DNA of 27,817 bases from Polyangiales bacterium. Lineage in GTDB: Bacteria > Myxococcota_A > Polyangia > Polyangiales > Polyangiaceae. The position numbers and the translations under genes were made by a program. Positions within the stretch are counted from its first letter, which is position 1. The number at the start of each line of letters is the position of its first letter. The notes under the pieces were generated by a model, which worked only from the letters and a program-made list of their open reading frames with translations, was not told the origin of the DNA and did not search any database. Positions 2-19,177 of the stretch are shown here, piece after piece. The stretch is from the NCBI GenBank assembly GCA_038231275.1, contig JBBRLQ010000057.1:1-27817 (forward strand), read 5' to 3'.

Positions 2-1756
2 ATGCGCGAGCGCATCAACTCCCAGATCAAGGAGGAGATGGGGAAGAACCAGCGCGAGTACGTCCTCCGCCAGCAGCTCAAGGCGATCAAGGAGGAGCTC
101 GGCGAGGACGACGGCGATCAGGGCGATCTCGACGGCCTCGAGGATCGCATTGCGAAGGCAACGCTCCCCACGGAAGCGGAGCAGGTCGCCAAGAAGCAGA
201 TCAAGCGCCTTCGCAACATGCAGGTCGGCTCGGCGGAGTACACCGTCGTCCGCACGTACCTCGACTGGATCTTGGATCTGCCGTGGCACGTCCAGACGCC
301 CGACAACCTCGACATCGCGCAGGTGCGCAAGGTGTTGGACGAGGATCACTACGGCCTCGAAAAGGTGAAGAAGCGCATCCTCGAGTACCTCGCCGTCCGG
401 AAGCTGAAGAAGGACAAGAAGGGACCGATCCTTTGCCTCCTCGGACCGCCCGGCGTCGGCAAGACGTCGCTCGGCCGCAGCATCGCGCGGTCGCTCGGGC
501 GTAAATTCCACCGCATCTCCCTCGGCGGCGTGCACGACGAGGCGGCCATTCGCGGTCACCGGCGCACGTACGTCGGCGCGCTGCCCGGCCAGATCATCCA
601 GGGAATGAAGAAGGCGGCGACGATCAACCCCGTCTTCATGATGGACGAGGTCGACAAGATCGGTCACGACTTCCGCGGCGATCCCGCGGCGGCGCTGCTC
701 GAGGTTCTCGATCCCGAGCAAAACAACACGTTCGCGGATCACTACCTCGAGATCCCGTACGACCTGTCGAACGTCATGTTCGTCGCGACGGCCAACGTCG
801 CCGATCCCATCCCGGCCCCGCTCCGCGACCGCATGGAGATCCTCGAGATCCCCGGCTACACACGGCGCGAGAAGCTCGCGATCGCTCGCCAGCACCTCAT
901 CGTCAAGCAGATCGAGGAGCACGGCATCACCACCGCGATGCTCGACATCACCGACGCCGCCGTCGAGATCATCATCGACAGCTACACCCGTGAAGCCGGC
1001 GTGCGCTCTCTCGAACGTCAGATCGCCAGCGTCATCCGCGGCGTCGCCGTCAAGATCGCCGAGGGCGACCTCACCCCGCGAAAGATCGAGACCGAGGACC
1101 AGCTGCGCGAGTTCCTCGGCGCCGGCCGCTACACGAGCGACGTCGCGGAGCGCACCGAAGAGGCGGGCGTGGCCACTGGCCTCGCGTGGACGAGCGTGGG
1201 CGGCGAGATCCTGTTCATCGAGGCGACGCGCATGTTCGGCGCCGGCAAGATGCAGCTCACCGGCCAGCTCGGCGACGTCATGAAAGAGAGCGCGCAAGCC
1301 GCTCTCAGCTACGTCCGGACGAACGCCGAGAAGTACGGCATTGCGAAGGACTTCCTCGAGAAGAGCGACATCCACATCCACATCCCCGCCGGATCGATGC
1401 CGAAGGACGGTCCGTCCGCCGGCGTCACGATGTTCACCGCGCTCGTCTCGATGCTCACCGGCGTCCGCGTCCGCCACGACGTCGCGATGACCGGGGAAAT
1501 CACGCTGCGCGGGCGCGTGCTGCCGATCGGCGGCCTCAAGGAGAAGGTCCTCGCGGCGCACCGCGCGGGCATCAAGCGCGTCATCGTCCCCGAGCGCAAC
1601 AAACCGGACCTCGACGAGGTGCCGGCCGAGGTCAAAAACGATCTCGAGTTCGTCTTCGTCGCGAAGATGGATCAGGTGCTCGATGCGGCGCTCGAAGAGA
1701 AGCTCGCCCCGAAGCCGGCGGAAGAGAAGAAGGAAGCCGTTCCGCCCACGAACTAA
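2..1756 (+). CDS. lon: ATP-dependent Lon protease (N-terminus outside window)
   Basis: Walker A GPPGVGKT, RGHRRTYVGALPG, Walker B MMDEVDK, catalytic Ser in PKDGPSAG and Lys in GGLKEK. The frame is open at the window edge and the N-domain is missing. Confidence 0.97.
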   Translation: MRERINSQIKEEMGKNQREYVLRQQLKAIKEELGEDDGDQGDLDGLEDRIAKATLPTEAEQVAKKQIKRLRNMQVGSAEYTVVRTYLDWILDLPWHVQTPDNLDIAQVRKVLDEDHYGLEKVKKRILEYLAVRKLKKDKKGPILCLLGPPGVGKTSLGRSIARSLGRKFHRISLGGVHDEAAIRGHRRTYVGALPGQIIQGMKKAATINPVFMMDEVDKIGHDFRGDPAAALLEVLDPEQNNTFADHYLEIPYDLSNVMFVATANVADPIPAPLRDRMEILEIPGYTRREKLAIARQHLIVKQIEEHGITTAMLDITDAAVEIIIDSYTREAGVRSLERQIASVIRGVAVKIAEGDLTPRKIETEDQLREFLGAGRYTSDVAERTEEAGVATGLAWTSVGGEILFIEATRMFGAGKMQLTGQLGDVMKESAQAALSYVRTNAEKYGIAKDFLEKSDIHIHIPAGSMPKDGPSAGVTMFTALVSMLTGVRVRHDVAMTGEITLRGRVLPIGGLKEKVLAAHRAGIKRVIVPERNKPDLDEVPAEVKNDLEFVFVAKMDQVLDAALEEKLAPKPAEEKKEAVPPTN

Positions 1757-2838
1757 AACTCCCCAATCACCATCACGCCGCCGGGCGCCGGAACGAGGCG
1801 CGCCGACGGCGTGGTCGTTTTCGGCGCCTTCAGCACGAGGTACAGCCCCGCGCCCACCGTGACGGCGGCGGCCGCCCCGAACCCGATCGCGAGCCCTTGA
1901 TCCCGCTTCGCCGAGCTCTGGAGCGGGTCGAGATCGTTCCGCGCGTTCTCCGGGCACCGCCCCCCGGGCAGCGTGCACTCCAGCGTCTTCTGCTTGTCGA
2001 GATCGCCCGCAGCCTGGTTGTGTAGCAGCAGAAACACGAACGACGTCACCCCCAGCGCGCCACCGACCCCAAGGAGAATATAGCCCGGAAGCCGATTCGG
2101 CCCTGGAGTCGGAGTCGGAGTCGGAGTCGGAGTCGGAGTCGGAGTCGGAGTCGGAGTCGGAGTCGGCGTCGGCGTCGGCGTCGGGGTCGCGTCCGGAAGA
2201 TCGACCGCGATGGTCGCCGCCTGCCCCTCCGCCAACGTCACGTCCTTGGTGAACGTCGCGGCACCGCTCGTCGCGTCGACTTTGTGCGCGCCAGGATCGA
2301 CAGGCAGCGGCACGCCGAGCGCCCCGACGGGCTGCCGCTCGCCGTCGAGCCGCACGACGAGATCGCTCGACGGATTGCGCGGTGGCGTGATCGTCAGGCG
2401 CGGGACTCGGGGACGGATCCCCGTCGCCCGCTCCTGCGCCATACGCGCGATGTCGGCGGCCTTCGCGTCGCCTGTCCCCTCGCGCGCGGCGAGCTCGTAG
2501 TCGCCGAGTGCGGCGCCGAGCTTGCCTAGCTGCTCCTCGCAGCGACCGATGTTGAAGCGAACCGCCGCGGTCTCTCTGACCGCCGCGACGCGCCGAAATT
2601 TTCCGAGCGCCGCTTCGAACCGCCCTGCGTCGACGTCACCCGTCGCCTCGCGAAAGAGCTCACGCGCGGCGACGAGGGCCTGCGGGCTCGCCTCCGGGGC
2701 CTGCGCGCGCGCCATCCCAGGGCCTCCGAGGGTGGTCCCCGTCACGAGGACCGCCGACATCATCCACGCGAAAAAACGGCGCGGAATCCGAGGCTGCAAG
2801 GACGGGTGGACGTCGGGGGTTAAACCGTTCACGATCAC
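1753..2838 (-). CDS. Secreted TPR + PEGA-like domain protein with Pro-Thr linker and C-terminal membrane anchor
   Basis: Signal peptide ending ARA-Q, TPR-like helices (ARELFREA...FNIGRCEEQLG), PEGA-like segment (VRLDG...VDPGAHKVDAT), (PT)n linker, two hydrophobic helices, terminal GGVMVIGEF. Start uncertain (GTG 2838/2832 or TTG 2799). Stop overlaps the lon stop. Confidence 0.8.
   Translation of the reverse strand: MIVNGLTPDVHPSLQPRIPRRFFAWMMSAVLVTGTTLGGPGMARAQAPEASPQALVAARELFREATGDVDAGRFEAALGKFRRVAAVRETAAVRFNIGRCEEQLGKLGAALGDYELAAREGTGDAKAADIARMAQERATGIRPRVPRLTITPPRNPSSDLVVRLDGERQPVGALGVPLPVDPGAHKVDATSGAATFTKDVTLAEGQAATIAVDLPDATPTPTPTPTPTPTPTPTPTPTPTPTPTPGPNRLPGYILLGVGGALGVTSFVFLLLHNQAAGDLDKQKTLECTLPGGRCPENARNDLDPLQSSAKRDQGLAIGFGAAAAVTVGAGLYLVLKAPKTTTPSARLVPAPGGVMVIGEF
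2105..2188. repeat. Hexamer tandem repeat (GGAGTC)x10 + (GGCGTC)x3 + GGGGTC, encoding Pro-Thr on the minus strand
   Basis: Read directly from sequence. Confidence 0.97.
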
Positions 2839-2863
2839 GAAGGTAGCAAAGAGGGTCCCTCAG

Positions 2864-4306
2864 GTGGCAAACGAACCCGCCAAGAATGCGCTGGCCAGCG
2901 TTCGGCCAGAGCCTTTCCTCGAGACGTCCGGCGAGAAGCTCGTCGCCGACGTCGTCGTGGGCGGGAAATATCGCCTCGTTCGGCCCGCAGGGTTCGGCGG
3001 GATGGGGGTGGTTTGGGTGGCAAAGAACCTTGCCACCGACGCCGAGGTGGCGGTGAAGGTGCTCCTTGCCGAGGACGCGGGCTCGGGAGAGGCGTCCACG
3101 CGCTTCCGGCGTGAGGCGCACGCAGCGGCGCGTCTCGCGCATCGCGGGATCGTGCGCATCTTCGATCTCGTCGAGCTCGACGGTGTGCACGATGGCGCGC
3201 TCCTGATGGTCATGGAGCTCCTCCGTGGGCAGACCCTCGCGGACGCGTTCGATCAGAAGCACAAGCTCGAGGTCCCCGAAGCGCTCGACCTCACGATCGC
3301 GCTGCTTTCGGCCCTCGGGCACGCGCACGAAGCGGGGATCGTGCATCGGGACCTGAAGCCCGAGAACGTGTTTCTTTCCGCCGATCCCGACGGGCACGTG
3401 ACACCAAAGATCCTCGACTTCGGCATCTCCAAGCTCGAGAGCCCGGGCGCGCCGCGCATCACGGGGGACGGCGCGCTGCTTGGAACGCCGAGCTACATGT
3501 CCCCCGAGCAGGCGCGCGGCTCCGGCGACGCCGACGCGCGCAGCGATCTCTTCACGATGGGCATTTTGCTCTACGAGATGCTCGCGGGGAGAAACCCCTT
3601 TGCCGAGGGCAGCTACCACTCCGTCGTTGCCGCCATCCTCGAGCGTGAGCCTCAACCTCTGGCGGACGTGCCGATCGCGCTTTGGTTGGTGATCGAGAAA
3701 GCGCTGCGAAAGCGTCCCGCCGAGCGTTACCAGACGGCGGAGTCGCTCGCCGACGCGCTCATCGCCGTGCGCGACGGCCGGCCGGCGCCGGTCTCGCTGC
3801 CCCCCACCGATCTGGAGGACGACTTCAGCCCCTCGCAGCCTCCGCGCCGCCCGTCGCGACGTCCGGCGCCGACCGTCCTCAACGCGCGCGGCGCCGCGAC
3901 GGCGCGCACCCGAGGCCGCGGCGCGCTGATCGCATCCTTCATCGTCGCGCTCACGCTCGCCGTCGGCGCGTTCTTCTGGCTCGGCTGGAAGGGGACCACC
4001 CCCGCGCGCCCAGCACCGATGGCCTCGCCAACACCGATTCCGGAGGTCGCCATCGACGCCCTCCCGGTTGCCGCCGCCCCGACTCCGACTCCGACTCCGA
4101 GTCCGACTCCGACTCCGAGTCCGACTCCGACTCCGACTCCGACTCTGACTCCGAGTCCGACTCTGACTCCGAGTCCGACTCCGACTCTGACTCTAACTCC
4201 GGCCGCGACCCCCACCCACCGACGCGTCCGGCCTCCGCGTGGCGTCCCGCGGCCGCCTCCGGATCCGGCGCCCCCCAGCACGGTGGCGCGCGACCCCGGT
4301 TTCTAG
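2864..4306 (+). CDS. Membrane-anchored Hanks-type Ser/Thr protein kinase
   Basis: GFGGMGVV, VAVK, HRDLKPEN, DFG and GTPSYMSPEQ are all intact. One TM helix (ALIASFIVALTLAVGAFFWL), Pro/Thr stalk, terminal RDPGF. GTG 2864 chosen because GAGGGT lies 7 nt upstream and it avoids overlap with the divergent gene. Confidence 0.93.
   Translation: MANEPAKNALASVRPEPFLETSGEKLVADVVVGGKYRLVRPAGFGGMGVVWVAKNLATDAEVAVKVLLAEDAGSGEASTRFRREAHAAARLAHRGIVRIFDLVELDGVHDGALLMVMELLRGQTLADAFDQKHKLEVPEALDLTIALLSALGHAHEAGIVHRDLKPENVFLSADPDGHVTPKILDFGISKLESPGAPRITGDGALLGTPSYMSPEQARGSGDADARSDLFTMGILLYEMLAGRNPFAEGSYHSVVAAILEREPQPLADVPIALWLVIEKALRKRPAERYQTAESLADALIAVRDGRPAPVSLPPTDLEDDFSPSQPPRRPSRRPAPTVLNARGAATARTRGRGALIASFIVALTLAVGAFFWLGWKGTTPARPAPMASPTPIPEVAIDALPVAAAPTPTPTPSPTPTPSPTPTPTPTLTPSPTLTPSPTPTLTLTPAATPTHRRVRPPRGVPRPPPDPAPPSTVARDPGF
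4079..4200. repeat. Imperfect (CCGACT)n tandem repeat, about 20 units, encoding the Pro-Thr/Pro-Ser stalk
   Basis: CCGACT units interspersed with CCGAGT and CTGACT variants. Confidence 0.95.
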
Positions 4307-4353
4307 CCGTTTGCCGTTCCGCGCAATCGACTTCCGCTCTACGTTCGCGGGCG

Positions 4354-5649
4354 ATGAAGACCGTCAGGCTTGGCCTCCTCGGATGCGGCACCGTGGGCGG
4401 TGGCGTCGTGCAGCTGCTCAGCCAGAACGCGAAGTACCTCGCCGAGCGGGTCGGTGCGCCGCTCGAGGTCGCGCGCGTGCTCGTGCGCGATCCGGAGAAG
4501 GAGCGCGTCCCCGAGCTCTCGCGCGATCGCCTCACGACCGATCCCGAAGCCGTGCTCGGCGACGCGTCGATCGACGTGATGGTCGAGGTGATGGGCGGTG
4601 AGGAGCCGGCGCGCGGGTACGTTCTGCGCGCGCTGGACTCGGGGCGCGGCGTCGTCACGGCGAACAAAATGCTCCTCGCGCTCCACGGCCCCGCGCTCGT
4701 CGATCGGGCGATCGCGCGCAAGGTGGATCTCGCGTTCGAGGGCTCGGTCGGCGGAGGGATCCCCGTCATCCGCGTCTTGCGCGAGGCGCTCGCCAGCGAC
4801 TGGGTGACGAGCCTGCGCGGCATCGTCAACGGCACGTGCAACTTCGTCCTCACGCGGATGCAGAAGGACGGAAAGAGCTTCGACGAGGCCCTCCGCGAGG
4901 CGCAAGCAAAGGGCTACGCGGAGGCGGATCCCACGCTCGACGTCGACGGCCACGACGCGGCGCACAAACTCGTCGTCCTCGCGATGCTCGCGTTCGGCGC
5001 GCGCGTCGATCACGCGCGCGTCCCCACCGAGGGCATTCGCGCGATCGAGGCGGTCGACCACGATTTCGCGCGGCGCTTCGGCTACGTCATCAAGCACCTC
5101 GCCATCGGCCACGATCGCGGCGACGCCGTCGAGCTGCGTGTTCACCCCGCGCTCGTTCCCGAGGACCAGGCCATCGCCAACGTCAACGGCGTCCTCAACG
5201 CCATCGCGCTCGAAGGGCGCGCCCTCGGTCCGTGCCTTCTCTCCGGCCGCGGCGCCGGCGACATGCCGACCGCGGTGAGCGTCGTGGCCGACGTGCTCGA
5301 CGTCGCCCGCGCGAAGATCAACGGCGCCGCCGGCCTGATGACCCGTGGCATACAGCTCTCTGAGCGCGCCGTGGCGCCCCTCGGCGACATCGAGACCGCG
5401 TTCTACCTTCGCTTCGAGGTCTACGATCGCCCCGGCGTCCTCGCGCGCATCACCGGCGCGCTGGGGGAGGCACGCGTGTCGATTCAGGAGATGGTGCAGA
5501 AGGGCGGGGGAGACGCGAGCGGCGCACCGGTGCAGGTCGTCATCATGACCCACGTGGCGAAGGAGAAGGATCTGCGCACCGCGCTGGGGGCGATCGCGGG
5601 CGCGGAGTTCATTGCGCGTCCGACGCACGTGATTCGGGTGGTGGAGTAG
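4354..5649 (+). CDS. hom: Homoserine dehydrogenase with C-terminal ACT domain
   Basis: GLLGCGTVG Rossmann motif, VVTANK, EGSVGGGIP, GIVNGTCN, GYAEADPTLDVDGHDAAHK, ACT domain DRPGVLARI. ATG 4354 is in frame with the longer ORF. Confidence 0.97.
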   Translation: MKTVRLGLLGCGTVGGGVVQLLSQNAKYLAERVGAPLEVARVLVRDPEKERVPELSRDRLTTDPEAVLGDASIDVMVEVMGGEEPARGYVLRALDSGRGVVTANKMLLALHGPALVDRAIARKVDLAFEGSVGGGIPVIRVLREALASDWVTSLRGIVNGTCNFVLTRMQKDGKSFDEALREAQAKGYAEADPTLDVDGHDAAHKLVVLAMLAFGARVDHARVPTEGIRAIEAVDHDFARRFGYVIKHLAIGHDRGDAVELRVHPALVPEDQAIANVNGVLNAIALEGRALGPCLLSGRGAGDMPTAVSVVADVLDVARAKINGAAGLMTRGIQLSERAVAPLGDIETAFYLRFEVYDRPGVLARITGALGEARVSIQEMVQKGGGDASGAPVQVVIMTHVAKEKDLRTALGAIAGAEFIARPTHVIRVVE

Positions 5650-5650
5650 G

Positions 5651-5768
5651 CTCCGACTCCGACTCCGACTCCGACTCCGACTCCGACTCCGACTCCGACT
5701 CCGACTCCGACTCCGACTCCGACTCCGACTCCGACTCCGACTCCGACTCCGACTCCGATTCCGATTCC
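5651..5768. repeat. Intergenic microsatellite (CTCCGA)x18 plus TTCCGA variant
   Basis: Fills essentially the entire gap between the convergent hom and pyrB stop codons. Confidence 0.97.
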
Positions 5769-6691: not shown

Positions 6692-6892
6692 CGGCTCGAC
6701 GAACTAGCACGGAAGCCCGTCAATCGGCGCCGTTTGCTGCGCTGCAGCGCGGTTCCGTGGTCACTGGAAATTGTGAATACCAGCGAAATCGTTTGATAAT
6801 TTGTGGATTCCGGAACAAAGAACGGGGCGCGCACTGGCCCAGACGCCGCGTCGGCGGCCGGCCCTGACACAGCCCAGACAGGAGTGACGACG

Positions 6893-8494
6893 ATGCCGTT
6901 TGCCCCGCGTTTCGCGAAGCTCGTTCGGCCCGCGGCCCTCGCCGCACTCGCGCTCACGGCGCTCGCCCCCGCCACTGCGCGCGCGGACGAAGAGGCGGAC
7001 CTCTCCGTCGAGCCGGGAGGTCACCCGCGCGGCATCATCCCGATTCATCGCTTTACCCCGATGGTGAACCAGTCGCTGCCGGATCTGCCGACGACCTGCA
7101 AGCTCACCTACAACGGCGGGCCGGTCCTCTCCGAAGCGCAGGTCGTCGTCGTCTACTGGGGGGCCGGCGTCGACGCCAACCTCCAAGCGTACGCGCCGGG
7201 CTTCTTCCAGGCGGTCCTGAAGAGCACGTACATGGACTGGCTCCAGGAGTACAACACGCCCACGCAGACGATCTGCCGCGGCAGCTACGTCAGCGCGACG
7301 ACCATCACGCCGCTGAGCGCGACGAAGACCGTGCAGGACTCGGCGATCGGCCCGGAGCTCGTTCGCCAGATGGGTCTCGGCAAGATCCCCGCGCCGACGC
7401 TCGACAAGGCCGGCAAGCCGAAGACGCTCTACTTCGTTTACTTCCCGCCGGGCACGTCGATCACGATGCAGGGCGGATCGTCGTGCGTGCAGTTCTGCGG
7501 CTACCACAGCGACGGCGTCTACAACGGAGCCTTCTTCCCGTACGCGGTCATCCCCGATCTCGGCGGCGCGTGCGCGGGCGGCTGCGGCGCCGGAACGAAG
7601 AACGACAACTTCGGCGTCGTCAGCTCGCACGAGCTCATCGAGGCCATCACCGACGTCGACGTCGGCGACAGTGACATCGGCTGGTACCAGCAGGGCTCGG
7701 GCGCCTGCAACGGCGAGATCGGCGACATCTGCGCGGCTGCATCGGGCGACACCGCCACGGTCGCCGGCTACCAAGTGCAGCTCGAGTGGTCGAACAAGCA
7801 AAAGAAGTGCGTCGCGTCCGGCGCCGGCTACACGCCGTGCGGCGGTTGCACGACCAACGCCCAGTGCGCGGCCCCGACCCCGCTGTGTAAAACGGCCACC
7901 GGAGACTGCGTCACCTGCATCGCGAACACCGACTGCTCGGGCGCGACGCCGGTGTGCGACACCGCGACGAACAAATGCAAGGCGTGCGCGGGCGACACCG
8001 ACTGCCCCGGCGGCCACTGCGCGACGTCGGGCGGCAACGCCGGCAAGTGCGTCGCGTGCACCACCAACGCCCAATGCAGTAACCCCAAGCCCGTGTGCGA
8101 CGCGACGGCGGGCACGTGCGGCGGCTGCAAGGCCGACGCCGACTGCGCGGGCAACTCCGCCGGCACCACCTGCAACACGTCCACCGGCGCGTGCGGTCCT
8201 GCGGGCGGCTCGTCCGGTTCGTCGGGCGGCACGTCCGGCAGCTCGGGCGGGACGTCGGGCGGGACGTCCGGCAGCTCGGGCGGGACGTCGGGCGGCACGT
8301 CCGGCGGAAGCTCGGGCGGCGCGGACGGAGGCTCTGGCCCGAACGGAGACTCGCCGACCAGCAGCGACGGCACCACGACGACCAGCGGCTGCTCGGCAAA
8401 TGGCAGCGGCACGAACGGCGGCCCCGGTGGCGCGGCGCTCGCCCTCGTCGCGGGTCTCGCCCTCCTCGCTCGCGGCCGCCGCAAGAAGGCGTGA
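6893..8494 (+). CDS. Surface protein: Phi-1/EXORDIUM-like domain, Cys-rich repeats, Gly/Ser linker, MYXO-CTERM sorting signal
   Basis: GGAG upstream of ATG 6893; signal peptide ending ARA-D; LTYNGGPVL, FCGYH, SHELIEAITD, GWY, EIGDIC; repeated C-x4-C...P-x-C units; terminal GCS...hydrophobic helix...RGRRKKA. Confidence 0.8.
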   Translation: MPFAPRFAKLVRPAALAALALTALAPATARADEEADLSVEPGGHPRGIIPIHRFTPMVNQSLPDLPTTCKLTYNGGPVLSEAQVVVVYWGAGVDANLQAYAPGFFQAVLKSTYMDWLQEYNTPTQTICRGSYVSATTITPLSATKTVQDSAIGPELVRQMGLGKIPAPTLDKAGKPKTLYFVYFPPGTSITMQGGSSCVQFCGYHSDGVYNGAFFPYAVIPDLGGACAGGCGAGTKNDNFGVVSSHELIEAITDVDVGDSDIGWYQQGSGACNGEIGDICAAASGDTATVAGYQVQLEWSNKQKKCVASGAGYTPCGGCTTNAQCAAPTPLCKTATGDCVTCIANTDCSGATPVCDTATNKCKACAGDTDCPGGHCATSGGNAGKCVACTTNAQCSNPKPVCDATAGTCGGCKADADCAGNSAGTTCNTSTGACGPAGGSSGSSGGTSGSSGGTSGGTSGSSGGTSGGTSGGSSGGADGGSGPNGDSPTSSDGTTTTSGCSANGSGTNGGPGGAALALVAGLALLARGRRKKA

Positions 8495-10627: not shown

Positions 10628-10770
10628 GCGCGGGACAATTGCCGATTTCGCGAGGCCGCACAAGTCCTCAATAGGGGCCCTCAATCGGGCCGCCGTGGCG
10701 CCGATCCCTGCCATGAGCTTTGACATCGCGGCCGGGTAGGGGGGATAAGGCGGGCCGGGAGATCCCTCGC

Positions 10771-11478
10771 ATGTCGCTCGCCCTTTTCCAGGCCGCCGTT
10801 GGCGCGACCGATCCGCCGCGCCTCGACCCCGTGCAGCTCGTCCTCGGGGCGTCGCTGCCGGTAAAAATCGTCATCATCCTCCTCGTCGCATTCTCGCTGA
10901 TGTGTTGGCTGGTCATCGGCCTCAAGGCGCTCCACCTCTCGCGCGCGAACGCGGAGAGCACGCGCTTCGTGAAGGCGTTCGACGGTGCCGACGACTTCGA
11001 GCACCTCGCGAAGGATCTCGCGGCCTACCGCGGGTCGCCATTCGCGCGCATCTTCGCGACCGGGTACGACGAGATGGTCCGCGTCTCGCGCGGCGCTCGA
11101 AAAGAGCTGACCGACGCGCAAGGCACGCACGTCGAAACCGCCACGCGCCGCGCCGCCGCCGAAGAGATCACCCACCTCGAGTCGTGGATGAACCTGCTCG
11201 GCACGATCGGCTCGACGGCGCCGTTCATCGGCCTCTTCGGCACCGTCTACGGGATCATGGACGCGTTCCTCAGCATCGGAAACCAGCAGAGCGCAAACCT
11301 CCCGGTCGTCGCGCCGAAGATCGCCGAGGCCCTCATCGCCACCGCCATCGGCCTCGTCGCCGCGATCCCGGCGGTCATGGCGTACAACTATTTCGCGCGC
11401 AAGGTCGGCATCCTCGCCGACACCATGGACGGCTTCGCGTCCGACGTCGCCGCGCGCGCCAAGCTCGGGGGCCTCTGA
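10771..11478 (+). CDS. tolQ: TolQ (MotA/TolQ/ExbB proton channel)
   Basis: GSTAPFIGLFGTVYGIM and IAEALIATAIGLVAAIPAVMAYN; first gene of a tolQRAB-like cluster. Confidence 0.92.
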   Translation: MSLALFQAAVGATDPPRLDPVQLVLGASLPVKIVIILLVAFSLMCWLVIGLKALHLSRANAESTRFVKAFDGADDFEHLAKDLAAYRGSPFARIFATGYDEMVRVSRGARKELTDAQGTHVETATRRAAAEEITHLESWMNLLGTIGSTAPFIGLFGTVYGIMDAFLSIGNQQSANLPVVAPKIAEALIATAIGLVAAIPAVMAYNYFARKVGILADTMDGFASDVAARAKLGGL

Positions 11479-11479
11479 C

Positions 11480-11914
11480 ATGGGCATGAGCGCGGCCGCG
11501 GGCGGGGGCCGTCATGGTCGCCGTCGCCTCGGCGGGATGAACGACATCAACGTGACGCCGCTCATCGACGTCATGCTCGTGCTCCTCGTCATCTTCATGG
11601 TGACGGCTCCACTCCTCACGACCGGCGTCCACGTCGACCTGCCGAAGGTGAAGAGCGCCCCGATGCAGACGGACGATTCGAAGCTTTTGGTGATCGTGAC
11701 GAGCGACGAGCACGTCTATCTTGGGAAAGACGAGATCACCGGCGCCGTGGACGACCGCCTCAAGAACAACACGCGCCTCCAGACCGAGAAGGAGCTGTAC
11801 ATTCAAGCGGACGAGAACGTGAAATACGGCGCAGTCTTACGCGTGATGGCCGCGGCCCGCGGGGCCGGGGTCGAGAAGCTGGGCATGGTGACCGACCCCC
11901 TGGTGGTTAAGTAG
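11480..11914 (+). CDS. tolR: TolR (ExbD/TolR family)
   Basis: DINVTPLIDVMLVLLVIFMVTAP with the essential TM Asp, plus IQADENVKYG. Confidence 0.93.
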   Translation: MGMSAAAGGGRHGRRRLGGMNDINVTPLIDVMLVLLVIFMVTAPLLTTGVHVDLPKVKSAPMQTDDSKLLVIVTSDEHVYLGKDEITGAVDDRLKNNTRLQTEKELYIQADENVKYGAVLRVMAAARGAGVEKLGMVTDPLVVK

Positions 11915-11977
11915 GCGTGAGCTGAACCGCGGACGACGGATTCGACGGCAGAGCTTTGACGGACGAAGGGCTTAGGA

Positions 11978-12751
11978 ATGGCGACGGCGTGGCGACCCAA
12001 ATACGAGGGGGACGAGATCGCGCTGGGCGTGTCGCTCGCGATCGCGCTGCACGGCATTCCGATCGCCGTCATCATCCTCTATTCGATCGGCGTCTTCACG
12101 CGCGCGCCGCAGACAGATGAACAACCGTTCGTCGCGAAGCCGGTCATCGCCGCGACGCTGCTGAAGCTCGGCAAGCCGATCGATCCGAGCAAGCTCCCCG
12201 ATCGCATCGTCCCGCGCGCGCGCACGGCGCCCAAGCAGGATCTCCTCGCGTCGACTGACGATCCGATGAAGAAGCACGACGCCGGCGCGCCTCCTCCGCT
12301 CGCGCAGGACTCGGACATCTCGCGCCTCATCGCCAAGAGCGATCCGTTCGCCGAGGACGCGGGCAAGGATCGCCCCGACGAAGGCCACGCGGCCGGCATC
12401 GACGGCGGCACCGAGACCGATCCGAACAAGGTGAAGGCGGGAGACATGTACGCCGCGCTTCTCCGCAAGTTCCTGCAGGACCGCTGGCAGATCCCGACGC
12501 TCATCTCCCAAGGTGAAGCGTCGCGCCTCTGCGTGTCGTACAAGATCACGCTGGATCAGCGCATGCGGATCTTCCACATCCAGACGACGCCCGTGAAGGG
12601 GAGCGGAAACGACTTGTTCGACGAGTCGGCTCGAACGATGCTCCAGAAGCTCATGGACGACAACACTTCGCTCCCGCAGCCACCCCCCGAGGTGGCCGAG
12701 AGCTGGCTCAGGCGCGCGGTCAACTTGAAGCTCGGAGATGGATGCCGATGA
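11978..12751 (+). CDS. TolA/TonB-like energy transducer
   Basis: N-terminal TM with Ser/His (SLAIALHG), Pro/charged linker, TonB/TolA C-domain features (RWQIP, SGNDLFDESA). Lies between tolR and tolB. Confidence 0.8.
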   Translation: MATAWRPKYEGDEIALGVSLAIALHGIPIAVIILYSIGVFTRAPQTDEQPFVAKPVIAATLLKLGKPIDPSKLPDRIVPRARTAPKQDLLASTDDPMKKHDAGAPPPLAQDSDISRLIAKSDPFAEDAGKDRPDEGHAAGIDGGTETDPNKVKAGDMYAALLRKFLQDRWQIPTLISQGEASRLCVSYKITLDQRMRIFHIQTTPVKGSGNDLFDESARTMLQKLMDDNTSLPQPPPEVAESWLRRAVNLKLGDGCR

Positions 12752-14046
12752 AGAAGGCTCTTTCGCTTGTGGGCTTCGGTGTCGCAGGGGTGCTCGTCGC
12801 GTCGTTTCCAGCGACCGCGCAGACGCCGGCGCCGACGGGCAGCGCGCTCCCGACGGCGGCAGGTCCCACCGGAGGCGAGGTGACGACGATCACCGTCCCG
12901 GGCGGCAGCCGCTCGCTCTTCAAGGTCGCGGTCGTGCCGCCGGTCGGCGATCCCGGCGTCGGCCAGACCGTGACCGACACCGCCGGCCGCGACCTCACGC
13001 TCTCGTCGCTCTTTCAGGTCCTCGATCCGAAGAGCTTCACCGCGAACACCGCGGCCGAGGGCAACACGATCGATCCGGCAAGCTGGCGCAACGTCGGTGC
13101 CGAGGGCGTCATCAAGGGCGTCACGTCGATGCGCGGCGCCAACGTGCACCTCGAGATGAAGCTCTTCGTCGTCTCGCGCGGCGCCGCCGAGGTGCTCAAG
13201 AAGGAGTACGACGTCCCCGCGACCGGCGTACGCGGCGCCGTGCACCAGTTCGACAACGAAGTCGTGAAGTGGTTCACCGGCACGCTGGGCTCGTTCGGGA
13301 CGCGCATGGTGTTCTCCGCCACGACCGGGCGCGGGCAGAAGGGCATCTTCTCGATCGAGAGCGACGGGCAGGGCGTCTCGCGCCTCCCCGCGGTGTCGAA
13401 CGTCGCCCTCGCGCCGGCGGTCGGCCCCGGCGGCGTGTACTACGCGGGCGGCCTCGCCGACGGAAGCTACGCGCTCTTCCGCGTCGGCAACCCCGCGGCG
13501 GTCCTTCGCCACGCGGGCCTCATCTTCGGCGTCGCGTTCGGCGGCGGCAAGATGGCGCTCGTCATCTCGCAGAACGGCGTGAGCGACATCTGGACCGGCC
13601 AACCCGATGGCAGCGGCCTCACCAGGGTGACGAACGGCGGCCTCAACACGCACCCTGCGTTCGGCGGCGGCGGGCAGCTCGCCTACGTGTCGAACAGCGG
13701 CGGCAACCCGCAGATCCACGTCGACGGAAAGCGCGTCTCGTGGCGAGGCTCGTACAACATGTCGCCTGTATGGTGCAACGATCCGGAGGGGACCAAGCTG
13801 CTCTTCATGGGCCGTGACGGCGGCACGTGGGACATCTTCAGCGTCGATCCCAGCGGAAGCGCCGCCAGCATGAAGCGCCTCACGCAGGACCAGGGATCGA
13901 ACACGTATCCCGCGTGCGCGCCCGATGGCCGCATGGTCGCGTTCTTCTCGACGCGCGGCGGCCTCTTCACCTCGAACGTCGCCGGCATGAACCAGCAGAA
14001 GATCGCCAGCGTCACCGGCGAGAGCCTCCGCTGGGAAGGCAACTGA
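12748..14046 (+). CDS. tolB: TolB-like periplasmic beta-propeller protein
   Basis: Signal peptide, TolB N-domain features (DLTLSSLFQVLDPKSF, WRNVGAE, FGTRMVF), PD40-like repeats (HPAF, YVSNSGGNPQI, PDGRMVAF). ATGA overlap with the upstream stop. Confidence 0.85.
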   Translation: MKKALSLVGFGVAGVLVASFPATAQTPAPTGSALPTAAGPTGGEVTTITVPGGSRSLFKVAVVPPVGDPGVGQTVTDTAGRDLTLSSLFQVLDPKSFTANTAAEGNTIDPASWRNVGAEGVIKGVTSMRGANVHLEMKLFVVSRGAAEVLKKEYDVPATGVRGAVHQFDNEVVKWFTGTLGSFGTRMVFSATTGRGQKGIFSIESDGQGVSRLPAVSNVALAPAVGPGGVYYAGGLADGSYALFRVGNPAAVLRHAGLIFGVAFGGGKMALVISQNGVSDIWTGQPDGSGLTRVTNGGLNTHPAFGGGGQLAYVSNSGGNPQIHVDGKRVSWRGSYNMSPVWCNDPEGTKLLFMGRDGGTWDIFSVDPSGSAASMKRLTQDQGSNTYPACAPDGRMVAFFSTRGGLFTSNVAGMNQQKIASVTGESLRWEGN

Positions 14047-15024: not shown

Positions 15025-16644
15025 ATGATCCCTTCCCTTCCATCCGCGCCAGCTTCGTCCCCACGAACCATTTCGCGCGCGCGCACCGCGCGGCTCGGCG
15101 CAGGTCTCGTCACGCTGGTCGCCGGCTTCAGCAGCTGCTCGCCGACGTTCCAGCCGAAGGCCTGCGCGACCGACGGCGACTGCGGGAGCGCGCTCGTCTG
15201 CGTGCAGCAGACCGGACCCGGCGTGTGCAAGTCTCCCGCGGACGCGCCGATCCGCATCGGCATGAGCGCGCCCGTCTCGGGGCCGAGCCAGGATCTCGGC
15301 ACGGAGATGAAGAAGGGCGTGACGCTCGCGTTCGACGCGCAGAACGCCGCCGGCGGCATCCGCGGGCGCCAGCTTCAATTGAACTTCCGCGACGATCAAT
15401 ACGTCCCGTCCGCGGCGGAGCAGGCCGCTCGCGATCTGCTCGACGTTCAACCGCAGCCCGGCGTCACCGCGAAGTGCCCGACCACGACGAACTCGCTCGT
15501 CGCCGGCACCGATCCGGTCGGGTCCTCGGCCCTCACGCGCGGACCGAACGGCGTCATCGCGCTCTTGGGAAACGTCGGCACGCCGACCATGGTGCGCACC
15601 GCGCCGCTCGCCGTCGAGACGCAGAGCCTCTTCTTCGGCGCGTTCACCGGCTCGGCCAAGATGCTGCGCGATGGCGCATCGGGCCCGTGCGGGAAATACA
15701 TCTTCAACGTGCGCGCGAGCTACGGGCAGGAGGCGCGCGCGACGCTCGAGTTCTTCCTGAAGAGCGGTGGTGTGCCCGACTCGGCGCACCTCGTCAGCTT
15801 CGATCAGAACGACACGTTCGGGCAGGCCGGCTACGACGGCCTCGTCAACGCCTGGACCGCGCTGAAGACGGCGCCGCCCCCGAACACCTCCGGCGACCCG
15901 ACCAACCCGATCAAGCGATTTCGCTACACGCGTGACGACCAGACGAGCGTGCCCTCGCAGGTCGCGGCGGCGACGGCGTACCTGGCGTCGCTCGTCGCGT
16001 CGGACAGCGCACCTTCGGTCAACGTCGGCATCTTCATGACGGACACGTACGGGCCCGCGACGACCTTCATCAAGGGCGTGCGCGACTGGCAATACGCCCT
16101 CACCTCGGACGGGGTCACGTACGTGAGCCCCGACGCCGCCAACCGCCTGAAGCTCACGATCAGCAACGTGTCGTTCTCCGGCGCCAACTCTCTCGCGCAG
16201 CGCCTCAAGGACCTGGGGCAGGTGAAGACGCCGACCGGACCGAAGGCCTACAGCGACAGCGTGTTCGTGTCGCAGGTCGTGCCCAACTACCAGAGCGACA
16301 GCAGCGACGCCGTGCGCGATTACAAGAAGGCGCTCGAGGACGCGCGCCTGACGCCGAGCTTCACGTCGCTCGAGGGATACCTGGCCGCGCGCGTCTTCAT
16401 CGCTGGGCTCCTCGCTCATCAGGGGCCGTACACGGCGGAGGCGCTCATCAACACGTTCGAGCACCTGCCGAACCTGGCGCTCGGCCTCGGCGCGAACGCC
16501 GGATTTTCTGCGTGCGGCAACGACGTTTGCAAGACGCAGCACAACTACTCGAAGTCTGTGTGGGGCACGGCGCTGTCGCCGGACGGGACGTTCACCAATC
16601 GCTACTTCTGGACGGACGGAACACCCCTGCAGCTCTTCGAGTAA
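15025..16644 (+). CDS. Periplasmic binding protein type 1 (LivJ/branched-chain ABC SBP-like) lipoprotein
   Basis: Lipobox-like FSS-C, Cys-rich mini-domain, IRIGMSAPVSGP, GGIRGRQLQL..RDDQY, LLGNVGTPT, FNVRASY, SQVVP, SLEGYLAARVF. Confidence 0.85.
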   Translation: MIPSLPSAPASSPRTISRARTARLGAGLVTLVAGFSSCSPTFQPKACATDGDCGSALVCVQQTGPGVCKSPADAPIRIGMSAPVSGPSQDLGTEMKKGVTLAFDAQNAAGGIRGRQLQLNFRDDQYVPSAAEQAARDLLDVQPQPGVTAKCPTTTNSLVAGTDPVGSSALTRGPNGVIALLGNVGTPTMVRTAPLAVETQSLFFGAFTGSAKMLRDGASGPCGKYIFNVRASYGQEARATLEFFLKSGGVPDSAHLVSFDQNDTFGQAGYDGLVNAWTALKTAPPPNTSGDPTNPIKRFRYTRDDQTSVPSQVAAATAYLASLVASDSAPSVNVGIFMTDTYGPATTFIKGVRDWQYALTSDGVTYVSPDAANRLKLTISNVSFSGANSLAQRLKDLGQVKTPTGPKAYSDSVFVSQVVPNYQSDSSDAVRDYKKALEDARLTPSFTSLEGYLAARVFIAGLLAHQGPYTAEALINTFEHLPNLALGLGANAGFSACGNDVCKTQHNYSKSVWGTALSPDGTFTNRYFWTDGTPLQLFE

Positions 16645-16650
16645 TTCCTC

Positions 16651-18258
16651 ATGAGTGAATCTTCCAGTAAAAGCTCCGGCTCTGCCGAGGGCACCGACGC
16701 GAAGACCGAGACGTTCGGGCGGTATGTGCTCTACGCCCCCATCGCGCGCGGGGGCATGGCGACCGTGCACATCGCGCGGCTCGTCGGCGCCGAGGGCTTC
16801 AGCCGGATCGTCGCCGCGAAGCGCTTGCATGAGCAGTACACCGAGGATCCGGACTTCGTGACGATGTTCCTCGACGAGGCTCGCATCTCGTCGAAGCTCC
16901 ATCACCCGAACGTCGTCAGCGTGCTCGACGTCGTCCTGTCTGGGAAGGACATCGTGCTCGTCCAGGAGTACGTGCACGGCGTGCCGCTCGACAAGCTCGT
17001 GAAGGCGAGCCAGACGCGTGGGCTGCAGCTGCCGGTGCCCATCGCCGTGGCCATCGTGGCCGGCACGCTCCTGGGCCTCCACTCCGCGCACGAGACGAAG
17101 GACGAGCTCGGCGAGCCTCTCAACATCGTTCACCGCGACGTGTCGCCGCAGAACGTCATCGTCAGCGCCGATGGCATCCCGCGCCTCCTCGACTTCGGCA
17201 TCGCGAAGGCGCGGTCGAGCGCGCATGTGACCCAAGAGGGCTTCTTCAAGGGGAAGATCACGTACATTCCGCCGGAGCAGCTGCGCGGCGAGCCGCCGGC
17301 CCGCACGACCGACATCTACGCGGCGGGCGTCGTGCTCTGGGAGCTCCTCGTGGGACGCCGCATGCACGCGGGCCGCGGCGAGAGCGAGCTCTTCTCGGCG
17401 GTGCTGAGCGGCTCGCTGCCGACACTCGAAGAAGCGGTCGCCGATCAGCGCGAGACGATGCCACCCGAGCGCTGGGACGCGCTGGCGAAGCTGAGCCCCC
17501 TCGTGATGAAGGCGCTGGCGAAGACCGCGGACCAGCGCTTTCAGACCGCTGAGGCGATGGCGGACGCGCTCCGGGCGACGTTCCCGCCGGCGGCGCCCAA
17601 TGATTTGGCGGCGTGGGTGAGGGATCTCGGCGCCGATTTTCTCGAGGCGCGTCAGCGGGTCATCACCGCCAACGAGGAGAGCTGGCGGACGATGCGGCGC
17701 CTAGGGTCGGGGCCGACCAGCGTGCCCAGCGTCTCGAGCGGCGTCACCTCCGGCATCCAGCCCCTCGCCGGCCTCCGCGACGCGACCCCTTCGCGCGGCG
17801 CCGCGCCGACGATCCCTGACGCCTCCTATCCTCGAGAGGAGCCGCGACCGATGAAGCGAAGTTGGCCTCTCATCTTGCTGCTGCTCCTCTTCGTGTCTGG
17901 AGTCTCGGCGTTCGTCGTGCTGCGCTTTGGGCCCAAGCAGGTGGGACCGACCCCCGAGCCTCCCGTGGGTGCGACCACGGCCGCGGCGCTGCCGCCGATC
18001 TCGCCGCCGGTTCCGCAGCCCGATCCATCCGCGCCCATCGCCGCCGCGGTGCCGAGCACGCCCGACCCGCCGACGCCAAAGCCCGTGCAGGTCGTCGTGC
18101 ACCCGCCCTCGCGGCCTCCTCCTCCTCCGCCGCGCCCTGTCGCGCACCCGCCCTCGCCGCCTCCGACGCCGCCTCCGGCGACGCCCACCCCGTCCAACTG
18201 CAACCCGCCGTACTACTTCGAGGGCACGAAGAAGGTCTTCAAGCCCGGCTGCATCTGA
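16651..18258 (+). CDS. Membrane-anchored Ser/Thr protein kinase (myxobacterial HRDVSPQN type)
   Basis: ARGGMATV, AAK, HRDVSPQN, DFG, GKITYIPPEQ, TM (WPLILLLLLFVSGVSAFVVL), poly-Pro stalk, terminal CNPPYYFEGTKKVFKPGCI. Confidence 0.94.
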   Translation: MSESSSKSSGSAEGTDAKTETFGRYVLYAPIARGGMATVHIARLVGAEGFSRIVAAKRLHEQYTEDPDFVTMFLDEARISSKLHHPNVVSVLDVVLSGKDIVLVQEYVHGVPLDKLVKASQTRGLQLPVPIAVAIVAGTLLGLHSAHETKDELGEPLNIVHRDVSPQNVIVSADGIPRLLDFGIAKARSSAHVTQEGFFKGKITYIPPEQLRGEPPARTTDIYAAGVVLWELLVGRRMHAGRGESELFSAVLSGSLPTLEEAVADQRETMPPERWDALAKLSPLVMKALAKTADQRFQTAEAMADALRATFPPAAPNDLAAWVRDLGADFLEARQRVITANEESWRTMRRLGSGPTSVPSVSSGVTSGIQPLAGLRDATPSRGAAPTIPDASYPREEPRPMKRSWPLILLLLLFVSGVSAFVVLRFGPKQVGPTPEPPVGATTAAALPPISPPVPQPDPSAPIAAAVPSTPDPPTPKPVQVVVHPPSRPPPPPPRPVAHPPSPPPTPPPATPTPSNCNPPYYFEGTKKVFKPGCI

Positions 18259-18268
18259 AGAGGATCCC

Positions 18269-19177
18269 ATGAACCACTGCATCCGAAGCTTCGCGAGCGG
18301 GCTGGTGGCCACGAGCCTCCTCATGACGACCGCCGGTCCCGCGCTCGCGGCGCCGACCAAGGACGAGTGCGTCGAGGCGCACGGGCGCGGCCAGGACCTG
18401 CGCGAGGAGGGGCGCCTCACCCGCGCGCGTCAGGCCTTTCTCACGTGCAGCCAGCCGACGTGCCCTTCGCTCGTCCAGTCGGATTGCTCGCGCTTCGTCG
18501 AAGAGCTGGGGCGAATCCTGCCGAGCGTCACGTTCGTCGCGCGCGACACGAAGGCGACCGATCTCCCGAACACCGCGGTCTACCTCGACGAACAGCTCGT
18601 CGCGTCGCGCCTCGACGACGGCAAGAGCTACGACGTCGATCCCGGCAAGCACGCCGTGCGCTTCGTCCACGACGGCAAAGAAGTATCGATGCGCGTGGTC
18701 GTGACGCAGGGCGAGAAGGGGCGCAATGTCATCGCGACCTTCGCCGACGCAGCGGGAGGCGAGCCCGCGCAGACCGGTAGCGGCACGCGTCCCTCCTCGG
18801 CCGGTGAGCCGCCGTCTGCGCCGCCCGAGCCGAGCCGCCCGGTCTTTCCGCTCGTCCTCGCGGGCGCAGGCGCGGTCACCCTGGGCATCGGCGTCGTCTT
18901 GCTCGCGGTAGGCCTCGGCAAGGTGCCCAGCAACTGCAACAACTCCACGAAAGAGTGCGCGGCGCCGCCCTTCGACAAAGCGTTCGACGACGCGCACAGC
19001 GGCGTGGCGATGGCCAACGCCGGCGTCGTGCTGGGCATCGCGGGCGGCGCCATCGCCGCGACGGGGCTCATCTGGTACTTCGCGCAGGCCCCGCAAGCGA
19101 AGATCCGCACCGGCAAGGGCTTCAGCCCCTGGGTCGCGCCCGGCACCGGCGGCGTCAGCTTCTCCGGCGCGTTCTAG
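18269..19177 (+). CDS. Secreted Cys-containing TPR-like + PEGA-like protein with C-terminal membrane anchor
   Basis: GAGGA upstream of ATG 18269; signal peptide ending ALA-A; helical ECVEAH...C...CP...DC region; PEGA-like VYLDE...VDPGKHAVRF; two hydrophobic helices; terminal GGVSFSGAF. Confidence 0.8.
   Translation: MNHCIRSFASGLVATSLLMTTAGPALAAPTKDECVEAHGRGQDLREEGRLTRARQAFLTCSQPTCPSLVQSDCSRFVEELGRILPSVTFVARDTKATDLPNTAVYLDEQLVASRLDDGKSYDVDPGKHAVRFVHDGKEVSMRVVVTQGEKGRNVIATFADAAGGEPAQTGSGTRPSSAGEPPSAPPEPSRPVFPLVLAGAGAVTLGIGVVLLAVGLGKVPSNCNNSTKECAAPPFDKAFDDAHSGVAMANAGVVLGIAGGAIAATGLIWYFAQAPQAKIRTGKGFSPWVAPGTGGVSFSGAF

Follow-up and report, generated by a model that had tools for sequence, protein, structure and literature searches.

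Class-matched kinase tails and TPR proteins in a Polyangiales genome: a candidate split receptor across the cell envelope

The window analysed here, a whole contig of 27,817 nucleotides (C57) from the 9.28 Mb genome of a Polyangiales bacterium, carries at 1753-4306 a divergent pair of genes for a membrane Ser/Thr kinase and for a partner protein that combines a TPR domain with a PEGA-like beta-sandwich. The original prediction, which compared this pair with a second one at 16651-19177, had proposed that the C-terminal tail of the kinase and the TPR class of the partner co-vary, and this is borne out: in 212 kinase/partner pairs, 183 of the 191 classifiable tails match the class of the partner. 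We favour, with a probability of roughly 55%, the hypothesis that the two proteins form a split receptor, in which the TPR domain would bind the end of the kinase stalk in a class-specific manner and relay the signal of a partner predicted to lie in the outer membrane to the kinase. As far as sequences can tell, the architectures, the pairing and the tail–TPR co-variation are firm, and binding of the terminal motif by the TPR domain is quite probable by analogy with other TPR proteins.

The system is repeated and paralogous, as had been predicted. This genome encodes 301 Ser/Thr kinases (iterated profile) and 88 open reading frames (ORFs) with partner features, which form at least 64 kinase/partner pairs. 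Proteins with the N-terminal helical domain adjoin a kinase gene in 66 of 127 cases, compared with 538 of 7341 other genes (7.3%). The kinase C-termini fall into recurring motifs, and a tree of 126 helical domains clusters by the tail of the neighbouring kinase (69 columns, many forks unresolved). All 15 four-Cys partners have a kinase with a two-Cys tail within 700 nt, 13 in kinase-first and 2 in partner-first order; true two-Cys tails occur on 16 kinases, one of them without a partner, and one further pattern match was dropped as false. Three two-Cys tails lie on kinases that are unrelated in the kinase tree, and each of these still adjoins a four-Cys partner. The comparison pair at 16651-19177 does have the two-Cys tail and the four-Cys helical domain ascribed to it; the domain consists of three helices and its four Cys are invariant. 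A code of two classes did not survive and was replaced by six classes of partner helical domain: PGF, xGY, xxR, NPY, IDxxDP and the two-Cys tail/four-Cys domain.

Loci elsewhere were retrieved with six partner queries, and the titled relatives are Polyangiaceae and Myxococcales records. Together with this genome they gave 333 distinct partners, 218 with a complete kinase within 700 nt and 115 without, 6 of the latter adjoining a cut kinase; removal of 6 pairs with kinase fragments shorter than 120 residues left the 212 pairs. Partners were assigned to the nearest of six seed helical domains and tails by rules on the tail alone, written after the tails had been seen, and on this basis the matches are 55/57 for PGF, 16/18 for xGY, 45/54 for xxR, 13/15 for NPY, 18/32 for IDxxDP and 36/36 for two-Cys, with 8 mismatches and 21 unclassified tails in all. 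Sampling beyond this genome was seeded by the chosen partner classes, and kin are not independent. Merging pairs more than 60% identical in both domains gives 139 groups (110 match, 8 mismatch, 21 unclassified), and merging at 50% identity gives 77 (57, 4 and 16, respectively). The 64 pairs of this genome, which were not selected by class, comprise 44 matches, 4 mismatches and 16 unclassified tails. Across the phylum, 89 of 151 genomes contain the partner family.

Joint duplication of the pairs, in which adjacent tail and TPR DNA moves as one block and the proteins make no contact, could also produce such a match. This explanation draws on the 166 of 218 pairs that are kinase-first tandems with tail and TPR DNA adjacent, on the clustering of tail class on the kinase tree too, and on a number of independent contrasts that is too small for a test. 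However, clustering of kinase tails against neighbouring TPR domains, a comparison put forward in the original prediction, gave a non-random association that goes beyond kinase ancestry and gene order. The partner TPR foretells the tail better than does the kinase domain of the same polypeptide. With three-neighbour prediction, the tail class was recovered from the TPR in 184/191 cases, from the PEGA region in 178/191, from the kinase in 168/191 and from the anchor in 165/180. When neighbours above 50% TPR identity were excluded, the TPR predicted 184 tail classes and the kinase 126; the corresponding figures were 183 and 99 when neighbours above 50% kinase identity were excluded. Non-tandem pairs, predicted solely from other orientations, were assigned correctly in 46/48 cases by the TPR, 43/48 by the anchor and 11/48 by the kinase. 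Similarly, in a class-free partial rank correlation, tail and TPR given the kinase reach 0.42 and tail and kinase given the TPR 0.10 (0.30 and 0.12 without the four-Cys group), and, with 154 rows, the TPR tree accounts for the tail classes with 6 changes and the kinase tree with 16 (about 83 changes in shuffles).

The PGF class, to which the pair at 1753-4306 belongs, is the best test of co-inheritance because its pairs occur in all four orientations: its 55 matches are 33 convergent, 12 kinase-first, 6 divergent and 4 partner-first, and in 43 of them the tail DNA and the TPR DNA are non-adjacent. A single clade for PGF kinases was rejected (p-AU 0.00016; 24 tested vs 25 others, in a quick tree with the group named from the tails). 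With matches in four orientations and kinases from more than one clade, the PGF match is not accounted for by adjacency of the DNA. In the 55 paired tails G at -2 is invariant and F at -1 is conserved in at least 90%, and the last 3-4 residues are fixed while the stalk is only 26% identical, which also argues against joint descent without contact. The TPR likewise outpredicts its neighbours within classes: after subtraction of kinase and PEGA similarity, the tail–TPR correlation is 0.31 for PGF, 0.19 for xxR, 0.42 for two-Cys and 0.23 for IDxxDP (permutation p 0.002-0.004), and weak for xGY (p 0.038). Co-inheritance alone therefore appears very unlikely.

The partner of the window was modelled with AlphaFold2 from 99 sequences (mean pLDDT 90, pTM 0.57). 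The model consists of a five-helix TPR, a beta-sandwich, a linker, a long helical hairpin and a final beta-hairpin that ends in Phe; the hairpin helices are 38 and 40 residues long, and the loop between them holds Cys288 and Cys295, both invariant across the 99 aligned sequences. The conventional TPR-like domain that had been predicted is recovered as a paired-helix fold (helices 4-96), with a TPR_16 match (E 2.9e-6, 28.1 bits) below the Pfam cut-off of 32.7. A fold search with this domain returned a list filled by TPR chains, led by Tah1 with an HSP90 C-terminal peptide (Z 14.6, root-mean-square deviation 2.1, 91 aligned) and including Rap (Z 13.7), Sgt2 (Z 12.4), PlcR (Z 12.3) and Hop (Z 11.7), at 9-16% sequence identity; such Z values are about the level that the tool commonly gives for helical repeats, and the fold alone shows no function. 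The TPRs of Tah1, Hop and Sgt2 and those of the RRNPP proteins read short, often C-terminal peptides. Tah1, Hop/Sti1, Sgt2 and the RRNPP proteins have the five-helix TPR fold in common with the partner, but they are cytoplasmic. Export of the partners is suggested by a crude rule (a hydrophobic stretch and AxA before the helical domain), which 84 of 87 partners of this genome and 90 of 1000 control windows satisfy.

The partner is not covered by any Pfam or NCBIfam family. No Pfam PEGA match was found in either partner of the window; PEGA (PF08308) matches occur in 6 of 10 scanned paralogues, four of them above cut-off, so that the PEGA label of the window partners derives from paralogues, custom profiles and the modelled sandwich. 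In Foldseek, no match to the partner reached E 0.001; the fold searches barely covered the hairpin and the terminal strand, and the sandwich weakly matched 6hif_Y and 9k1u. A PDB sequence search returned generic TPRs only, and in an NCBIfam scan neither window partner scored above a family cut-off. The anchor matches only unnamed Myxococcota clusters in the Atlas; DUF5683 (PF18935), without a Pfam match, is a lead only (Atlas feature score 0.81, 108/256 shared).

On the other side of the pair stands what is, by its motifs, a Hanks-type Ser/Thr kinase with predicted activity: the Pkinase score is 144.3 bits against a curated cut-off of 31.7, and the catalytic motifs GFGGM, AVKVL, HRDLKPEN, DFG and GTPSYMSPE are all intact. 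Behind a membrane helix at residues 362-380, its outer part comprises 107 Pro/Thr-rich residues, in which no Pfam or NCBIfam domain was found, and ends in VARDPGF, in agreement with the Cys-free RDPGF end given in the original prediction. Kinase stalks in this system have a median of 104 residues and 21% Pro. The kinase does not fall among the PknB/Stk1 PASTA kinases (NF033483 253 bits vs a cut-off of 450, no PASTA match).

As for the partner, a location in the outer membrane seems on the whole the better supposition. At locus L205 (C42:32916-37364), TPR-PEGA forms the N-terminal part of a TonB-dependent receptor of 979 residues, with matches to plug (E 3.9e-22) and barrel (E 1.3e-24), which is encoded directly after a stalked kinase ending in LDIRMTR. 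TPR-PEGA also heads three proteins with barrel-like ends, in which no Pfam barrel match was found, and one barrel-ended protein has an xGY-class TPR beside an xGY tail. The fusion to TonB-dependent receptors and barrels suggests an outer-membrane partner. Among 305 hairpins, the loop contains two Cys in 246, none in 58 and one in 1; it is slightly acidic, and its flanks carry charges of +0.2 and +0.3 vs +2.4 before the kinase helix. The two window partners end alike, as had been noted (PAPGGVMVIGEF in the partner at 1753-2838 and VAPGTGGVSFSGAF in the pair at 16651-19177, both Phe-ended), and in the family Phe is terminal in 266/305 and F or W in 280/305. Positions -5 (96%) and -7 (92%) of this end are hydrophobic, but position -3 is Gly (220/280), and the terminal segment has only two strands, so it forms no barrel by itself.

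The same tail–TPR code might instead serve a partner that is an inner-membrane co-receptor, with a hairpin crossing twice and a lateral action like that of RtkS on PpkA. Helical hairpins are uncommon in outer membranes, and the hydrophobicity of the hairpin helices equals that of ordinary multi-pass helices: their medians of +1.5 and +0.7 are not separated from the +0.9 of inner-membrane multi-pass helices. Hydrophobicity thus does not decide between the two membranes, although it is counted against our preferred location, and the first hairpin helix of the window partner, at -1.0, is counted on the same side. However, basic flanks mark cytoplasmic loops (the positive-inside rule), and an inner-membrane hairpin fits poorly because a periplasmic TPR would place the two-Cys, non-basic loop in the cytoplasm; the paired invariant Cys and the acidic loop suit a non-cytoplasmic position. 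The terminal Phe on an alternating hydrophobic strand and the interchange of the anchor with a TonB-dependent receptor and barrels point the same way, and an inner-membrane partner would leave a 100-residue stalk needless, which makes this alternative doubtful. With an outer-membrane partner, an extended stalk of about 100 residues could span the periplasm.

In the split receptor as we envisage it, both the TPR and the kinase tail would be periplasmic, and the TPR would grip the C-terminal motif as TPRs of the Tah1 or Hop type hold C-terminal peptides. The partner would be anchored in the outer membrane via its hairpin and Phe-ended strand, or via a barrel in some paralogues, and its clustering or movement, in many cases set off by a lipoprotein from an adjacent gene, would gather the kinase domains and lead to autophosphorylation, by analogy with PpkA. 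PpkA is thought to dimerise and autophosphorylate via TagR and is bound by RtkS (PMC6082577). Lipoprotein genes follow 12 of 48 partners with co-oriented neighbours in this genome, against a background of 9.5% (crude lipobox rule), and are found downstream at 16/27 xxR and 7/12 PGF kinase-first loci vs 148/1466 controls. The lipoproteins after PGF-class partners share a stretch behind the lipid Cys (DLFHxTDF-, VPDITF- or FPAIDY-like; loci L211:1780-2961, L044, L047, L052, L090, L031, L033, L080 and L188), possibly a second docking motif for the anchor or sandwich of the partner.

The TPR could also be a dedicated cap or tether that carries no signal and either keeps tail-specific proteases off the disordered stalk or holds the kinase at a site. 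Orphan kinases retain the tail, no ligand-binding domain is evident in hairpin-type partners, and PpkA stability requires RtkS (PMC6082577). We nevertheless consider a pure cap or tether unlikely, as the existence of six codes, the fusions to receptors and the enrichment of lipoproteins downstream suggest varied inputs.

Besides the post hoc tail rules and the seeded sampling, several observations weigh against the split receptor. The PEGA region and the anchor are themselves good predictors of class, which is expected because the whole partner shares descent. No within-class signal was found for NPY, and among the 25 xxR paralogues of this genome it has p 0.086. Independent contrasts on well-supported branches, drawn from the four classes other than NPY and IDxxDP, number 2-4 per class, with none opposite and none significant; for PGF just one of two goes in the same direction. 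Residues specific to a class show no enrichment in the groove of the TPR (2/12 vs 21/52 elsewhere, Fisher p 0.18, groove positions being assumed from general TPR numbering); Arg11 (mature numbering) is conserved at 88% in the PGF and 100% in the xGY class. The partner of the window has no lipoprotein gene downstream, lon being there instead. Finally, 20 loci in distant genomes hold 9 complete pairs, of which 5 agree by eye with the class predicted and the other 4 disagree, so that the code drifts or has more classes there.

A search started with the kinase gave 26 complete relatives of the window kinase, of which 22 end in xGF-like motifs. Nine of the relatives have a partner in the locus: five combine PGF-type tails with PGF-class partners and were already in the set, three new ones ending in DLGF adjoin xGY-class rather than PGF-class partners, and one with another tail adjoins an IDxxDP-like partner. 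A DNA pattern for PGF-stop, which also matches a Trp codon, scored below its control in 31 genomes. The most conserved form of the PGF class is a widespread convergent pair (L130-L190) with tails WKxDPGF and PIRxPGF, whose kinase clade is unrelated to the window kinase. The PGF pair also occurs in cultured strains of Polyangium and Sorangium.

The original prediction had further held that the co-variation serves to insulate pathways. This stands in part: a weaker signal within classes is in its favour, but the classes are common to many pairs, and kinases and partners are often unpaired. Twenty-five partners of this genome belong to the xxR class, which speaks against strict insulation. Of the five RxPGF kinases of this genome, which form one clade, four have no neighbouring partner, the window kinase being the exception; in the kinase-side search, no partner lies in the locus for 10 of 15 PGF-type kinases, two of the ten having one at a distance of 1.7 kb, and among the 105 PGF-class partners with sufficient flanking sequence 47 lack an adjoining kinase. 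This genome has two strong PGF-class TPRs, at C57 and C2:295933. Strict one-to-one insulation by class was ruled out by the six classes for 64 pairs and by the partnerless RxPGF kinases, and for the same reasons sharing within classes is likely. The simplest reading is a class-level wiring with sharing in trans and finer tuning upstream of the motif; the code probably separates pathway classes, and kinases and partners of the same class that are encoded apart probably share.

At C10:215340-216248 (L362:2525-3433) and C23:111855-112541, two of the partnerless RxPGF kinases are followed by genes for FGE-sulfatase-domain proteins; the C10 gene matches PF03781 (E 1.7e-46), and that at C23 was assigned by likeness. 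We take this domain to have the same fold as COG1262. TagR, the PpkA activator, belongs to COG1262 (PMC13584744), and these neighbours may be alternative inputs. In addition, non-kinase proteins at C1:709953-712373 and C9:38346-39272 end in a Pro-rich stalk and DNPY; judging by these ends, the tail code may address other inner-membrane proteins besides kinases.

Among known systems, FecA-FecR-FecI cell-surface signalling uses an outer-membrane protein with a periplasmic N-terminal module that addresses one inner-membrane transducer. The TonB-dependent receptor with N-terminal TPR-PEGA at L205 is alike in this respect; however, the output here is a Ser/Thr kinase in place of an anti-sigma factor, a TPR serves as the module, and most partners have a hairpin and not a barrel. 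A TonB-dependent barrel or plug is absent from the window partner, and no extracytoplasmic function (ECF) sigma/anti-sigma pair adjoins the window pair. In TagQRST-PpkA of Pseudomonas aeruginosa and RtkS-PpkA of Serratia marcescens, a membrane Ser/Thr kinase is likewise under a separately encoded envelope protein, which contacts the periplasmic part of the kinase (PMC6082577, PMC13584744). Chains of 76-77 residues, RtkS or PpkA, in PDB entry 9k1u (title: RtkS-PpkA complex) are weakly similar to the partner sandwich (Foldseek E 3.6e-3, Z 7.8). PpkA offers a periplasmic domain (in Serratia, residues 363-482), whereas the window kinase has just a disordered stalk and a short motif. Unlike TagR and RtkS, the partner belongs to an unnamed family of TPR proteins, with dozens of coded paralogues per genome compared with one. 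No secretion-system genes or type VI secretion system (T6SS) Fha/PppA cluster were found beside the window pair or at L122 and L123, the rest of the genome not having been searched for T6SS. Kinases of myxobacteria and planctomycetes with fused periplasmic TPR arrays also have the kinase inside and the TPR outside (PMC11032199), but here the TPR stands apart as a protein of its own, whose class matches the tail of the kinase. The system works like an accessory-activated membrane kinase and also like cell-surface signalling, yet it belongs to neither. No description of this kinase-tail/TPR system was found in literature of partial coverage, so that prior mention is possible.

Ser/Thr kinases are very numerous in Polyangiaceae, whose kinomes exceed 300 members (353 and 317; PMC8436480). 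About one fifth of the kinases of this genome (64/301) have such a partner and lack a built-in sensor. We advance only tentatively the wider idea that in Polyangia and related myxobacteria such sensorless kinases, dozens in each genome, plug the coded ends of their Pro-rich stalks into the TPRs of interchangeable outer-membrane partners, among them a new class with a helical hairpin, barrels and TonB-dependent receptors, as an undescribed trans-envelope system whose code wires much of the myxobacterial kinome. If true, the code would be readable from sequence, including for kinases and partners encoded apart; it would assign inputs to these kinases and predict partners for orphans. The system would be categorically new if coded wiring from the outer membrane were confirmed, would be a source of natural peptide-TPR pairs, possibly orthogonal ones, and may represent a novel mode of outer-membrane anchoring.

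The coordinates of both pairs are given in Table 1. Both ORFs of the divergent pair are real and lie as had been described, with a very short spacer. Orthologue comparison sets the kinase start at GTG 2864 and the partner start at GTG 2838 or 2832, for a spacer of 25-31 nt; a kinase start at 2843 was ruled out by the conserved GTG at 2864 in orthologues, and a 594-aa frame from 2522 by comparison of orthologue starts. With so short a spacer between divergent genes, each promoter must sit within the opposite gene; no sigma-70-like promoter was found in window 1600-4500. The partner gene runs into lon and a homoserine dehydrogenase gene lies on the kinase side, and this order (lon, partner, kinase, homoserine dehydrogenase) is conserved at L122 and L123.

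Table 1. Features of the two kinase/partner pairs in the window.
Feature	Position	Strand	Basis or remark
Partner gene, PGF-class TPR protein	1753..2838	-	361 aa with the start at GTG 2838; 359 aa with the start at GTG 2832
Predicted cleavable signal peptide, residues 1-45, ending A-R-A	2704..2838	-	Sequence
Five-helix TPR domain (two TPRs and capping helix), residues 52-144, likely tail reader	2407..2685	-	Weak Pfam TPR_16, model, fold match
PEGA-like beta-sandwich, residues 147-211	2206..2400	-	Model, PEGA matches in paralogues, weak Foldseek matches
Pro/Thr linker from hexamer repeat	2095..2193	-	Sequence
Gly-rich hydrophobic helical hairpin, Cys288/Cys295 in connecting loop	1831..2091	-	Model, Cys conservation
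Terminal beta-hairpin, family consensus GG-hydrophobic-x-hydrophobic-x-G-x-F	1756..1806	-	Model, family alignment
Head-to-head spacer, 25 nt, AGAGGG preceding kinase GTG	2839..2863	.	Sequence, orthologue starts
Hanks-type Ser/Thr kinase gene, 480 aa	2864..4306	+	Pkinase domain, catalytic motifs, orthologue-supported start
Kinase domain	2972..3751	+	PF00069 E 6e-42
Single membrane helix, basic residues on N side	3926..3982	+	
Pro/Thr-rich outer stalk	3983..4282	+	Sequence
Terminal motif VARDPGF, PGF class	4283..4303	+	Sequence, paired-tail conservation
Comparison kinase, two-Cys tail (tail 18199-18255)	16651..18258	+	
Comparison partner: three-helix four-Cys domain, same sandwich, hairpin, Phe end	18269..19177	+	

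One hexamer repeat encodes the Pro/Thr linkers of both divergent genes (window 2105-2185 and 4080-4200), and it also fills window 5650-5765, the gap at which the homoserine dehydrogenase and carbamoyltransferase genes converge. The gene for the two-Cys kinase is directly preceded by one for a periplasmic-binding-protein lipoprotein (PF13458; window 15025-16644). A tolQ/tolR/tolA-like/tolB run, followed by a small lipoprotein-like ORF, occupies window 10720-14046; TonB_2 and TolB_N matches occur there, and tolQ and tolR are presumed from likeness. Finally, window 6803-8494 (minus strand) encodes a secreted Cys-rich protein, without a Pfam match, that has a Gly/Ser linker and a C-terminal hydrophobic segment with a basic tail, an end that we take to be MYXO-CTERM-like.

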